From NCBI GenBank assembly GCA_020353055.1, contig CP070686.1, positions 1,420,738 to 1,477,833 of the forward strand: a DNA stretch of 57,096 bases. Reading direction: 5' to 3'. Position 1 is the stretch's first letter; the number at the start of each line of letters is the position of its first letter. The DNA comes from a candidate division WOR-3 bacterium (lineage in GTDB: Bacteria > Hydrothermota > Tepidihabitantia > SM23-42). Positions 51,162-55,248 of this stretch are shown one piece after another. The notes under the pieces are model-generated. The model worked only from the letters and a program-made list of their open reading frames with translations. It was not told the origin of the DNA and did no database searches. The translations under genes and the position numbers were made by a program.

Positions 51162-53123
51162 TCAATCGATTAAGATGATCTTCGCTGTTCCAGAGGCGTC
51201 TTGTGTGTCGAGACGGGCAAAGTAAATACCGCTTGGCAGTTTTCTGCCCAGATCATCACATCCGTTCCACATGACTGATGACTGATGACCGATGACAGAT
51301 AGTTGCCCGAAATCCTTCACCATGCGTCCATCTGCACTGTAAATGCTCAGTCTGGCGCTCTCAGCCGTGCCCGGAACCTCGTAGCCGATACTGACCAGGC
51401 CATTGGTGACGGTCGGTTTGACATTGAGCATGATTCTCGATGACACCAGGCTCGGCGTGTCGTGTTCTTCGATGCCAGTCTGTCCAGGCTTAAAAGTGGT
51501 GTAGCGAAGTGCGAATCCATCGGTTATCTCAGCGGCAAGTGGGTGGTAGATAGCATCCCGGAAGTATTGGATACCAAAGAACTGGTCCGGGCTTTCGATA
51601 CCGACTGTGTTGTCATCTTGCTGCATTGCATTCAAGTATTGAACAACTATCTCTCCGTCGCCGGTCGGCGTTGTGTAGTAGGCAGGATCAAGCACTATAA
51701 TCTCGAAATTCTCTTCATAGCCGCTCGGGTAATGCTCCACGCGGAAATATTCAATGATGAAGCGGTGGTTAGGCGCGTCGTAGTAGGTGTAGACATCACC
51801 AGCCATACCAGAATTCCCCGGGTCGAGATCATCCCACAATCCTGCTATCATAGCATCCGGTCCATCAACATCAGGTATTCCGCTATTGGTCCAGTCGGCG
51901 CTCGTGGTTGATCCCATTGCCACCCATCCGTTGGAACATACGGTGATTTGGGAGTAATTGTTTCCGTAGTAAGTGAATGTGAATGGAAGTGAGACGGTAA
52001 CACTCTGGTTATCATAGAAATTCAGAGACGTGCCGGGATACGTGCTTTGCGTGGTGTCGATTGCTATCCAGTCAAAATCTGGTGATTCAAGATGTGGACC
52101 GCCGGAATAAAAGACATAGTAACGGCCCGTGTCGCTAGGCGCGGACATTCCGATATTAAGATCAAAATCAATTGTGTCTGCAAAGCCAGCGTCGGTTGCT
52201 ATAAGTCTAAACGATACAACATGCCCCTGAGGAGCGGCCGGACTTACGGCGACCACGTACGGGTCAGAAGCATTCTCCTTGATTTCGTCCACCGCTATGG
52301 CACCAAAACCCCCGGAGTTGTCCACGATATTAACACGCGGGTCAGCTGTGCTCAGTGTGGTCGATAGATCACCAAGGGGTGCACCGCCCATGTTTATCAA
52401 TGTTGCTGTCAGGTCGACTGTTTCGCCAGGATCCATGCAGCCATTGTTGTTGCCGCTTGCGTCGTAAACAGTTGTCTGAATGAGGACCAAATATGGATCT
52501 GTTCCGTCGTAACCAAGGACGATGTCGTCAGCGGAGACCTCCGCTGTTTCGGTCGCCCCTCAGCAACTGATCATTGTGTCCATCAGTGTTACTTTCACCT
52601 TGCTGACCTGTTCCGGGTCAACACCGGGTAGGTACATCAACTCATCGTCGATGTTGAAACTGTAGCTGTGCCAATCATCATCCGTCACCGGTAAGAGGTG
52701 CATCGTCGCACCATTTACCCATGGACATTCATCTGTCATGTTGGTCACTCTGGTTTCACCGAGCAACGCGCCATCACTATCCAGATAGCCGACTATTACT
52801 GCTGAAGCCGCCCATATGCCTGGGTAATTGTCCCAGGCATACATTGCCGCATCGAATGATACATTGATGTTCGTCGTCGGTATATCTGTAGTTTGATAAA
52901 GGATGGCGTGACCCATACCAGTTGTGCCAGTGCCGTATTTGTACAAATAGACCTCATTATCAGGGTCTGGGTGATACGCAGTGCCTCTTGTTATCGTGAC
53001 ATCTGTTCCGTATGATGATTGAAACCAACCTGGCGAAAGTGGCTGTTCAAAATCACCGTTGGTAATGTAGTTGGTAGCGCCGCATAAGCCGACAATTACG
53101 GCTAATACCAGGCAATACCTCAT
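51162..53123 (-). CDS. Secreted CBM-like/Ig/T9SS-CTD protein, putative selenoprotein (C-U motif, Sec188)
   Basis: AAAGGAGG SD, signal peptide, NGDFE domain ...MISC-TGA(52560-52562)-GATETAEVSADDIVL... in frame with the ORF 51162-52490; CTD WNGCDDLGRKLPSGIYF. Confidence 0.82.
51271..51298. repeat. 7-nt tandem repeat (ATGACnG x4) inside a CTD-coding region
   Basis: atgactg atgactg atgaccg atgacag. Confidence 0.6.
52529..52546 (-). promoter_or_regulatory. Putative bacterial SECIS element
   Basis: CAGCGGA-GGUC-UCCGCUG, 13 nt after UGA; possible lower stem AGGGGCGA/UCGUCCUU. Confidence 0.78.
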
Positions 53124-53201
53124 ATTCAACCTCCTTTCAGGGATTTTTATGCCATATCGACATACAATCCCTGCTTTTGGATTTATAACTACTATATGGG
53201 A

Positions 53202-53229
53202 ATAATAACAAAATTGGGGTTGGTGTCAA
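53202..53229 (-). promoter_or_regulatory. sigma70-type promoter
   Basis: TTGACA-N16-TATTAT. Confidence 0.5.
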
Positions 53230-53297
53230 GTGCCAATCGCCTGTAGGAGCGTCTGTCTTCGCAATCTATTGATATTCAATCATCTACAGGTAGTAAT

Positions 53298-53329
53298 AAA
53301 AAAGGGGGAGTACGTGAGTACTCCCCCTT
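53298..53329 (-). terminator. Rho-independent terminator
   Basis: AAGGGGGAGTAC-N4-GTACTCCCCCTT followed by a T-run on the minus strand. Confidence 0.85.
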
Positions 53330-53346
53330 GCCAGAGAAAAATATCT

Positions 53347-55248
53347 CTATTCGACCAGTATTATTTTCTGGGTTTCTGATTGATTTTCCGTATTCAATTT
53401 CACAAAGTATATGCCGGCTGGCAACCTACGACCCATATCGTCAGTGCCGTTCCAGAAAACAGATGACGCTTGATTATCGATACCTGATACCGGATCAAGT
53501 GCTTTGACCAAGCGGCCCATTGCGTCGTAGATTTTTAGCTCTATGTGTTCTCTACCATGTCCCGATACAAAGCTGATCTTGATCAGGTTGGAGAACGGAT
53601 TTGGAGCCACTTGGATAGTGGGTGTTTTCACGTCGAGTTTGGTTATTTCATCGACGCCCGTGGTTATGCCGAAGAAGTGCATTATGGAGTCGAGTAGTGC
53701 TTCTCTCGTAGAAGGCCCCGATGCATCGACAAGGCCGCCCAGTTCGAATGACAAGCCGACCGTCTTGTACCCTGCGTTTGCGTCATTGGCAACACCGCAA
53801 TCGTACATTTGATCACCGTCACGGAAGATTAAGAAGCCGGTACCGGTTGGACTGATGTGGTCGATGAAGGAGTTTTCGCCGGCATATTGGAAATTCATTT
53901 CGTCGGTGAAAGTGGTCATCTGTCCTACGAACGGGCCGCCATCACTGGTGCCATCATCAGTAGCGTTGATACCGAAGAGTGGGCAGAAATTGTAGCCGCT
54001 ACCCAGCGGATCATAATACCAAACATCACCGCCTTCGAGGTACATATTTCCGCCTGCTGTTAGATAATCTTCGAGCGCTGCTGCTTCCGGGCTTGTTGCT
54101 GTGATTACGTAATTGCTCGGGTAGATACCGACGCAGACGAATAAGGCACGGTACATCTCAAGGTCAGCACCTGACGGCAAGACGGTTGAGTAATTTCCGG
54201 TATAACCGAGATCGGACAAGATACTGTCCGTTGACATACCGGGTGCGGCTGTCGGGTCGGGATTCCAGACCATGAAATGATAGGAGCCGATAACGAAAGA
54301 GAAGTTGAAGGTATCGGAGAATGCACCGTCGTTTGCAATGAGCATGAAATCAGCGACGTGCCCTTGTGGCGTAGAGGTTCCAGCAGACAGCGTGTACGGA
54401 TCACTGGTATTTGTTTTTGTGCTGTCTACGGCGAGATACCCAAAGACACCGGAGTTATCAGTTATTGTGATGTAAGGGTCGCTTGACTCCAACGTTGTAG
54501 TAAGATTTGTGAAATCAACACCACCGATGTTCTTGATGGTTGCCGTTACGTCAACAGTCTCCCCAGGATCGATGCGTCCATTGTTGTTGCCGCTAACATC
54601 GAGAATCGTTCTCTCGAGGCAGGCAGCGTATGGATTTGAGCCAGTATAGTTGAGTACTACATCATCGGCGAAGACCTTCGCCGTCTCAAGCGTACCTCAG
54701 CCACTGTCCGCAAACCCGTACAGGGAAACTTCAATACATGCGATGTCTGTTGGATTGATCCCCGGTAGGTTGCTCAATTCAGTATTGATGTTGAATGCAT
54801 AATCATGCCAGTTAGAATCAGCAACCTGGATAAGACTGGACGTAGGACCGCTTGTCCATGGACATGCATAGCTGGCGGCATAGATCTTAGTGTCGCCCAG
54901 CAGATCACCCGTGTCATCCAGATAGGCGATGATCAGTGCGCCGGCTGCCCAGCAAGTCGTCGAATTACTCGAAGCATAGAGTTTGAGCGAGGCTGAGAAA
55001 TCAAGGTCAGTGGTCGGGATGTAGGTCATTTGATGTAATTTAACATAACCATCACCAGTACCCTTGTAGGCATAGACTTCATAATCCGGGTCAGGGTCAT
55101 ACGTCGTAGAACGATCGATGCTTGTGTTGTCGCCACTTTCTATCTGTGACCATCCAACACTCAAGTCCTGCTCGAAATCGCCGTTGGTAAGCAGTACACT
55201 GGCACTACCAAAAGCAACGAGCAATAATAGAATGAGATATCGGTGCAT
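53347..55248 (-). CDS. Secreted CBM-like/Ig/T9SS-CTD protein, putative selenoprotein (G-U-G, Sec184); paralog of 51162-53123
   Basis: Signal peptide, NGDFE domain ...FADSG-TGA(54697-54699)-GTLETAKVFADDVVL... open and in frame through to the ORF 53347-54492; CTD WNGTDDMGRRLPAGIYF. Confidence 0.82.
54666..54683 (-). promoter_or_regulatory. Putative bacterial SECIS element
   Basis: CGGCGAA-GGUC-UUCGCCG, 13 nt after UGA; two compensatory pairs versus the 52529-52546 hairpin. Confidence 0.78.

Follow-up and report, generated by a model that had tools for sequence, protein, structure and literature searches.

In the selenocysteine insertion sequence (SECIS) element of Escherichia coli fdhF, a minihelix presents a GGUC apical loop approximately 18 to 20 nucleotides after the UGA codon, and the G and U of this loop contact SelB. 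The helix of fdhF additionally has a bulged U, and the UGA itself forms part of its long lower stem. Zhang and Gladyshev's bacterial SECIS (bSECIS) model, summarised in PMC13188914, describes a stem-loop located within the coding region, directly downstream of the UGA that specifies selenocysteine (Sec). Its limits are an apical loop of 3 to 9 nucleotides, an upper stem of 4 to 16 base pairs, a UGA-to-loop distance of 16 to 37 nucleotides and a minimum free energy (MFE) of −7.5 kcal/mol or lower, with G at loop position 1 or 2 and either G or U directly after it. At Sec UGA codons in E. coli, SelB competes with release factor 2 (PMC4513850). Here we examine two hairpins in a 57,096-nucleotide stretch of DNA (the window) from a candidate division WOR-3 bacterium (GenBank assembly GCA_020353055.1, contig CP070686.1, positions 1,420,738 to 1,477,833). 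They lie inside two paralogous genes, termed A and B, and very probably are canonical, functional bacterial SECIS elements.

Reading through one TGA in each case joins pairs of open reading frames, as delimited by translation table 11, into the two genes. Their main features are as follows.

51162..53123, minus strand: gene A, a 653-amino-acid predicted secreted protein with Sec188 (translated with TGA as U; start and stop checked)
52560..52562, minus strand: in-frame UGA of gene A, read as Sec in the context S-C-U-G-A (UGA kept in 111 of 111 homologues)
52529..52546, minus strand: putative SECIS hairpin of gene A, 7 base pairs and a GGUC loop (loop 52539-52536), 13 nucleotides past the UGA, encoding part of T-A-E-V-S-A-D (from sequence, folding and covariation)
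53347..55248, minus strand: gene B, a 633-amino-acid paralogue of A with predicted Sec184 and the same architecture (translated with TGA as U; start and stop checked)
54697..54699, minus strand: in-frame UGA of gene B, context S-G-U-G-T (from translation and a sequence check)
54666..54683, minus strand: putative SECIS hairpin of gene B, 7 base pairs and a GGUC loop (loop 54676-54673), 13 nucleotides past the UGA, encoding part of T-A-K-V-F-A-D (from sequence, folding and covariation)

Measured from stop to stop, the open frames around the TGA comprise 221 and 465 codons in A, and 193 and 449 codons in B. The genes share 40% amino acid identity and 49.7% nucleotide identity over 597 aligned codons. 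Hairpins with a stem of at least six base pairs number 18 in A and 25 in B across this alignment, and only the one following the UGA occupies a homologous position in both. Between B and A (window ~53296-53335) there is a G+C-rich inverted repeat, GGGGGAGTAC...GTACTCCCCC, with runs of A and T on both sides. This repeat, which gave a weak, chance-level match to DapZ in Rfam, resembles a bidirectional intrinsic terminator and points to separate transcription of A and B.

On the minus strand, the TGA of gene A is followed by a 13-nucleotide spacer and the hairpin CAGCGGA-GGTC-TCCGCTG, and that of gene B by a 13-nucleotide spacer and CGGCGAA-GGTC-TTCGCCG. A previous reading of the window made from its letters alone (the sequence-only reading) had claimed two GGUC-loop hairpins at precisely this distance from UGA, and both are present exactly as described. 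It was also correct in stating that pair 2 is A-U in gene A and G-C in gene B through two synonymous changes (ACA/ACG and GCT/GCC), and that two non-synonymous changes, GAG/AAG (E/K) and TCC/TTC (S/F), make pair 6 G-C in gene A but A-U in gene B. Both hairpins have the GGUC loop in common with that of E. coli fdhF, whereas their short helix is perfectly paired and shows no conserved lower stem in the RNAalifold prediction. Stretches of 40 nucleotides containing the hairpins of A and B fold with MFE values of −13.5 and −11.0 kcal/mol, respectively. The two hairpins agree with the bSECIS model in all five respects, namely position, loop and stem size, loop G, spacing and MFE. With a loop of 4 nucleotides, an upper stem of 6 to 7 base pairs, a loop G followed by G and then U, and a loop 20 nucleotides after the UGA, they do not differ structurally from the bSECIS consensus as PMC13188914 gives it. 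What is unusual relative to this consensus is that one form, GGCGAA-GGUC-UUCGCC, is nearly invariant throughout the phylum (71 of 110 sequences) and that the spacing is fixed in 94 of 110.

Homologues were collected at two distances. A six-frame search of 41 related genomes, representing three families of one order, returned 71 matches that span the site, distributed among 36 of the genomes. Each has exactly one TGA, and in all 71 the TGA, the 13-nucleotide spacer and the hairpin are present in a gap-free alignment. When 272 genomes of the phylum were searched with a profile, the family turned up in 107 genomes and in 47 of 110 genera. All of the 150 matches listed from this search (110 more are unlisted) carry the TGA; 147 have exactly one, and three with extra stops appear pseudogene-like. 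UGA and hairpin are present in each of the 40 more distant loci that were fetched, and in the pooled set of 111 homologues both the UGA and the reading frame across it are kept without exception. A contiguous stem of 5 to 9 base pairs can be formed by 110 of these, while the remaining one (L125) has an interior A·C mismatch. Of these 110, 108 have a GGUC loop and two have GGUU. The loop begins 20 nucleotides after the UGA in 94 sequences, 17 nucleotides in 11, 23 nucleotides in four and 26 nucleotides in one, such that the spacer varies by whole codons. There are 18 distinct hairpin variants, the commonest of which is the gene B type (GGCGAA-GGTC-TTCGCC).

These alignments exhibit extensive covariation. 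For the 71 close sequences, RNAalifold identifies a core of 6 base pairs with compensatory changes at four of the six pairs and only one broken cell among 426. When seven pairs are considered, 94.8% of 497 cells pair, and 22 cells carry double changes compared to 1.9 in shuffles, with none of 500 shuffles reaching the observed number. The seventh pair is formed in only 46 of the 71 homologues and is therefore optional. For the 110 sequences (101 of them distinct), 99.5% of 606 cells pair and 39 carry double changes compared to 4.0 in shuffles, again with none of 500 reaching this number. Controls in which the register was slid pair in only 20 to 63% of cells.

The pairing is also evident from codon use. 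Inside the hairpin, the 71 close homologues use GCG for the first Ala in 66 of 71 cases, AAG for Lys in 59 of 59, GTC for Val in 70 of 71, TTC for Phe in 58 of 63 and GCC for the last Ala in 59 of 71. Flanking four-fold codons for the same amino acids vary freely (1.2 to 1.9 bits), and synonymous variation collapses exactly within the hairpin. The synonymous changes that do occur there come paired, GCA with TTT, in five and five instances. At the protein level, the 110 homologues encode AKVFA (82), AEVSA (11), ARVLA (10), AWVYA (1) or AQVCA (1), and the remaining peptides, AEVFA (4) and ARVFA (1), correspond to G·U intermediates. The residue pairs K..F, E..S, R..L, W..Y and Q..C are thus those that base pairing allows, with the wobble intermediates E..F and R..F also present. 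The earlier proposal that pairing is kept at the expense of protein sequence is fully supported by these covarying residue pairs in 110 homologues together with the frozen synonymous sites. The comparisons support the conclusion that the hairpins are under selection for pairing and that this selection shapes the encoded peptide. The family provides a very clean natural case in which an RNA structure within a reading frame dictates the permitted amino acid pairs (K..F, E..S and R..L, via wobble intermediates).

The genome carries the components expected for Sec insertion. A tRNA-Sec gene scores 75 bits against a cut-off of 47, and selB, selA and selD score 346, 551 and 317 bits, all above curated cut-offs; selD has an in-frame TGA of its own in the context K-C-A-G-U-A-S-K. 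The Sec machinery is clustered, with tRNA-Sec, selB, selA and the Sec-containing selD located within approximately 14 kb (genome 448326-462676). A scan of the whole 2.69-Mb genome yielded 64 GGTC-tetraloop hairpins whose stems have at least six base pairs, and those preceded by an in-frame TGA in long open frames are the hairpins of A, B and two genes at genome 1075676 and 1083694, which we take to be the HdrL and HdrA-MvhD selenoprotein genes. For both Hdr genes, the TGA, the open frames and the hairpin GGAUGUC-GGUC-GACAUCC were confirmed on the sequence. This hairpin shares with those of A and B a GGUC tetraloop and a perfect helix of 7 to 8 base pairs after an in-frame UGA, and presumably is served by the same SelB, although its loop is located 27 rather than 20 nucleotides after the UGA and its stem sequence is unrelated.

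As a control, we counted loose GG-loop hairpins located 15 to 28 nucleotides after stop codons that close frames of at least 150 codons in the whole genome. Such hairpins follow 5 of 1103 TGA codons with fewer than 100 open codons downstream, 5 of 822 TAA codons and 7 of 688 TAG codons. Where at least 100 open codons lie downstream of the TGA, they are found in 3 of 78 cases, which are A, B and HdrA-MvhD. The possibility raised beforehand, that equivalent hairpins are equally frequent after ordinary TGA stops, is not borne out by the count of 5 in 1103.

We propose that a ribosome arriving at the in-frame UGA would encounter the hairpin 13 to 14 nucleotides downstream, which would present its GGUC loop approximately 20 nucleotides from the codon. 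SelB, together with GTP and Sec-tRNA(Sec), would bind this loop and deliver Sec in competition with release factor 2. Translation would then continue to yield one protein of 653 and one of 633 amino acids. Located as it is within the coding sequence, the signal would also fix the peptide A-(K/E/R)-V-(F/S/L)-A-D. A signal of this kind is known. What is new is the family that it serves, in which Sec is fixed and which has no Cys counterpart among the relatives examined.

Both proteins consist of a signal peptide, an N-domain carrying the predicted Sec residue, an unassigned middle region and a type A sorting tail of the type IX secretion system (T9SS). The signal peptides, judged by eye, are N-terminal and encoded upstream of the UGA, while the T9SS tail is encoded downstream of it, an arrangement that is meaningful only for a single product. 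In Pfam and NCBIfam scans, the tail family TIGR04183 matches gene B with 46 bits and gene A with 23.0 bits, which is at the cut-off of 23. The genome itself encodes a T9SS, with PorU at 447 bits (cut-off 420) and 111 sorting-tail matches. With a signal peptide, a sorting tail and a genome that has the secretion system, A and B fit the description of T9SS type A cargo and would be exported by this route.

The N-domain (~190 amino acids) has no Pfam or NCBIfam match; scans of A and B gave tail-domain families only, the Pfam scan of the B N-domain extending to E ≤ 1. An AlphaFold2 model of the gene B N-domain, built on a 69-sequence alignment, is a beta-sandwich with a mean confidence score (pLDDT) of 93. 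This protein alignment comprises 69 of the 71 close members, two having been excluded because of runs of masked bases (N, translated as X). Masked-base runs also occur in some other fetched stretches, for example near genome 1478800. A Foldseek search of the model against the Protein Data Bank (PDB) returned E-values of 1e-6 to 6e-5, template modelling (TM) scores of 0.34 to 0.51 and 10 to 17% identity. The nearest solved folds are the carbohydrate-binding modules (CBMs) CBM4, CBM11 and CBM61, sugar-binding FBA domains and phage tailspike modules. The fold class of the modelled domain is clear, a CBM-like beta-sandwich, whereas its family and ligand are not fixed by fold similarity. The Sec position falls in the loop before the last beta-strand, and the hairpin-encoded peptide opens that strand. 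Of the 111 homologues, 78 have Cys immediately before Sec, 25 have Gly, four have Ser, three have Asp and one has Tyr.

The same data bear on other explanations for the conserved UGA and hairpin. If the TGAs were true stops, each locus would contain two genes, one for an N-domain protein and one for a tail-bearing protein, and the hairpin might have a different function, such as in pausing, attenuation or mRNA stability. Genes annotated in public data are indeed divided in this manner: most of the 150 representatives listed from a database search (described below) end at the UGA, and six fragments of ~445 amino acids start after it. Moreover, since UGA termination competes with Sec insertion in E. 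coli (PMC4513850), some truncated product is likely anyway. We give the two-gene explanation very little credence, however, because all 111 genes examined remain in frame through the TGA, the downstream product would carry a T9SS tail yet no signal peptide, and the truncated N-domain is predicted to miss its last beta-strand. Furthermore, the hairpin has the GGUC loop and spacing of the Hdr SECIS type of this genome, and only 5 of 1103 ordinary TGA stops are followed by such hairpins. Hairpins located after stop codons can stimulate read-through generally, and the UGA might be read through without Sec, either by a reassigned code (Trp or Gly) or by hairpin-stimulated near-cognate decoding (Trp or Cys). 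This is highly unlikely in a genome where TGA is the commonest ordinary stop, closing 1181 frames of at least 150 codons compared to 899 for TAA and 761 for TAG, so that a reassigned code is no option. Likewise, family members carry a single internal TGA (147 of the 150 listed), the Sec machinery is complete, and the loop has the G-[G/U] demanded by the bSECIS model (PMC13188914).

An incidental hairpin, whose nucleotides are conserved only via the peptide AKVFADD and whose complementarity is a by-product, would be compatible with the presence of the motif a-x-V-h-A-D-D/N in relatives without Sec. We nonetheless find this scarcely credible. Synonymous sites are frozen only inside the hairpin and the changes that do occur at them are paired, amino acid replacements come in pairs predicted by base pairing and include G·U intermediates, and the peptide varies freely in the relatives that do not use Sec.

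Several points weigh against interpreting the hairpins as SECIS elements or restrain the strength of that interpretation. The beta-strand motif of the non-Sec relatives, for example ARVLADN, AEVFADN and ATIYADD, indicates that part of the conservation is at the protein level; in these relatives the motif is loose, with many different residues in the peptide. No Cys is found at the Sec column in the 18 read-through relatives listed, which instead carry A, D, P, I, M, G, L or a gap, and with no Cys-form homologue the usual Sec/Cys cross-check for a selenoprotein is unavailable. One close relative of the D-D-U-G-D subfamily (P0077, a public protein of 206 amino acids) has Leu at the Sec column and keeps A-E-V-S-A-D-D. 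Sec may have been lost naturally here, or the sequence may be an artefact; its C-terminal part looks unrelated and the contig is possibly chimeric. The alignment of 110 sequences was anchored on the hairpin, and L125 was excluded from it by a filter requiring at least five contiguous pairs. Because the homologues are related and the alignment is anchored in this way, the figures from shuffling overstate significance and should not be read as probabilities. Neither the slid-register control nor the set of 18 hairpin variants depends on the shuffles. Folding energies do not distinguish the hairpins from dinucleotide shuffles, with z-scores of −1.41 for A and −0.94 for B and with 20 and 34 of 200 shuffles, respectively, folding equally well. 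Energy was therefore not used as evidence, and the statistical weight comes from the comparative data. An Rfam cmscan of window 52300-54900 at E ≤ 10 returned no SECIS family, only chance-level matches to small nucleolar and other small RNAs, which weighs little because bacterial SECIS elements are short and diverse. Sec insertion at the UGA, SelB binding, type IX export and the role of Sec are inferences, whereas the anatomy, conservation and covariation of the hairpins, the suppressed synonymous change, the Sec machinery and the shared Hdr loop are seen directly in the sequences.

A profile search of 1.84 billion representatives gave 323 matches at E ≤ 0.001. Among the 150 of these listed, most are fragments of ~185 to 190 amino acids that end at the Sec column and hence were cut by gene callers, and all source names of the listed relatives are ‘hypothetical protein’. 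A word-based homologue search in the near-length class yielded no full-length relative, only the six post-UGA fragments of ~445 amino acids. Standard gene callers thus split the A/B family in two everywhere. In addition, the usual search for selenoproteins relies on Sec/Cys pairs, as described in PMC13188914 and PMC2398784, so that families without a Cys form are invisible to current inventories. Table 1 of PMC13188914, which covers 119 prokaryotic selenoprotein families as of 2026, contains no CBM-like, beta-sandwich or T9SS-tailed family except GOS_C, although the supplements of recent surveys may include the A/B family. Judged on title and abstract, a literature search on selenoproteins and type IX secretion gave nothing relevant, and one on Omp28 together with selenoprotein found nothing.

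Tentatively, and with more doubt than confidence, we suggest that the hairpins flag a selenoprotein family that is absent from the catalogues and invariably uses Sec, being exported, T9SS-tailed, CBM-like, devoid of a Cys form and present in at least 47 genera of one phylum. Such a family might point to an extracellular selenoproteome, with Sec in a surface role other than the thioredoxin type, for example in binding of metals, metalloids or chalcogens, or as a selenenylsulfide staple or switch.

The sequence-only reading had further derived a lineage consensus, UGA-N9-14-stem(7-8 bp)-GG(U/A), from A, B and two other window sites with GGUGC and GGA loops. Those two sites are real. The consensus proved too narrow, because spacing and loops vary more widely. 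The A/B family itself departs from it, given loops that start 17, 20, 23 or 26 nucleotides after the UGA and a dispensable seventh pair. Elsewhere in the genome, the Hdr loops start 27 nucleotides after the UGA, selD carries AGUUG at the tip of a bulged helix, and a family of six paralogues has CGUGU or CGGGU; candidate Sec genes collectively exhibit GGUCU, AGUUU, GGUCA, CGUGU or CGGGU loops 20 to 25 nucleotides after the UGA. Since the loops of A/B, the Hdr genes, selD and the paralogues all fit the general bacterial SECIS model as given in PMC13188914, nothing about them is lineage-specific. It had also been anticipated that a covariance model would recover known Sec sites. A model built from the family hairpin, rather than from the four window hairpins, which a MAFFT alignment puts out of register, was run with filters off against the window and against 16 loci that hold selD, the two Hdr genes, gene D (described below) and 12 other candidates. 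In this form the expectation failed, as only A (46.3 bits) and B (40.8 bits) were found. At E ≤ 10 there was no match on the SECIS elements of selD, the Hdr genes, C, D, E (see below) or the 12 candidates, and all matches beyond A and B have E ≥ 0.97, with none on a known SECIS. The model is therefore family-specific.

The genes adjoining A and B have comparable features.

55263..56324, minus strand: gene C, a 353-amino-acid Omp28-like thioredoxin-fold protein with predicted U38 (U-G-S-C) and a T9SS tail (from translation, Pfam and NCBIfam)
56213-56211, minus strand: UGA of gene C, followed after 14 nucleotides by the hairpin GGCCAGT-GGTGC-ACTGGCC (56196-56178), whose loop is 21 nucleotides after the UGA
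50355..51065, minus strand: gene E, a 236-amino-acid Omp28-like protein with predicted U42 (U-P-F-C) and an N-terminal signal or lipoprotein-like leader
50942-50940, minus strand: UGA of gene E, followed after 9 nucleotides by the hairpin GCGTCTGC-GGA-GCAGGCGC (50930-50912), whose loop is 17 nucleotides after the UGA
56344..57096, minus strand: 3′ part, within the window, of gene D, which is paralogous to C and whose T9SS tail was matched at genome 1477081-1477323
genome 1478031, just past the window end, minus strand: UGA of gene D with the hairpin GCCAGT-GGTAC-ACTGGC

Genes D, C, B, A and E are consecutive on the minus strand (window 50355-57096, extending to genome 1478154), and each of the five has one in-frame UGA and a SECIS-like hairpin. 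Three Omp28-like thioredoxin-fold proteins with U-x-x-C (D, C and E) thereby flank the two CBM-like proteins (B and A). Gene C matches Pfam Omp28 with 50.4 bits (cut-off 34.9). The NCBIfam model for the Omp28-related selenoprotein (NF045500) gives 31.7 bits for C and 44.5 bits for E, below its cut-off of 200, and U-x-x-C is present in both. This model corresponds to GOS_C, which is among the 119 families in Table 1 of PMC13188914. C, D and E are related to GOS_C (also treated in PMC2398784) at scores below the curated cut-off; they are of the predicted exported type, with a thioredoxin-like fold and U-x-x-C, and C and D are T9SS-tailed. A and B, in contrast, are unrelated to GOS_C: they have a CBM-like beta-sandwich, their Sec position precedes the final strand and belongs in most family members to a C-U dyad, and no homologue with Cys in its place was found.

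Descriptor scans of the genome combined with Pfam identified additional candidates. Two FG-GAP repeat proteins with T9SS tails have a UGA in the context Y-G-C-U-Q-G (genome TGAs 467459, minus strand, and 781014, plus strand), and their hairpins carry GGUCU or AGUUU loops ~20 nucleotides after the UGA. They have the T9SS tail and the vicinal Cys-Sec in common with the A/B family, whereas fold, family and SECIS loops differ. The six paralogues noted above, of ~440 to 490 amino acids, share a conserved D-S-C-U-T-(S/A)-G-N-I-x-G-V-R-V-T-P segment and are located at genome TGAs 2453016(−), 2413826(−), 1025149(−), 2226481(+), 1194525(+) and 1498816(−). Their hairpin, with GGAGUG and CACUCC enclosing a CGUGU or CGGGU loop, lies 24 nucleotides after the UGA, and the only Pfam match is a T9SS tail in a single paralogue. 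Three more Omp28-like proteins with T9SS tails contain U-P-T-C, U-G-T-C and U-P-Y-C (TGAs 2149352(+), 925153(−) and 2181644(+)), and two of these are fused to extra domains (Cleaved_Adhesin and MAM-like). A small SCO4226-like candidate adjoins selD, with an in-frame TGA at 461323 and a 9-base-pair hairpin bearing a GGA loop.

Other descriptor matches were rejected. Those at TGAs 460787, 317627, 478510, 1243601, 453344, 211847 and 955645 have translations without a family match that look non-coding, and the match at TGA 994364 is the ordinary stop of a GGDEF gene.

In total, at least ten predicted T9SS-tailed Sec genes are present in this 2.7-Mb genome. The occurrence of Sec in many proteins that would reach the surface by type IX secretion raises questions of extracellular selenium chemistry and of the selenium demand of the organism. 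Among the Sec genes of the genome, members of three unrelated families have a vicinal Cys-Sec dyad.

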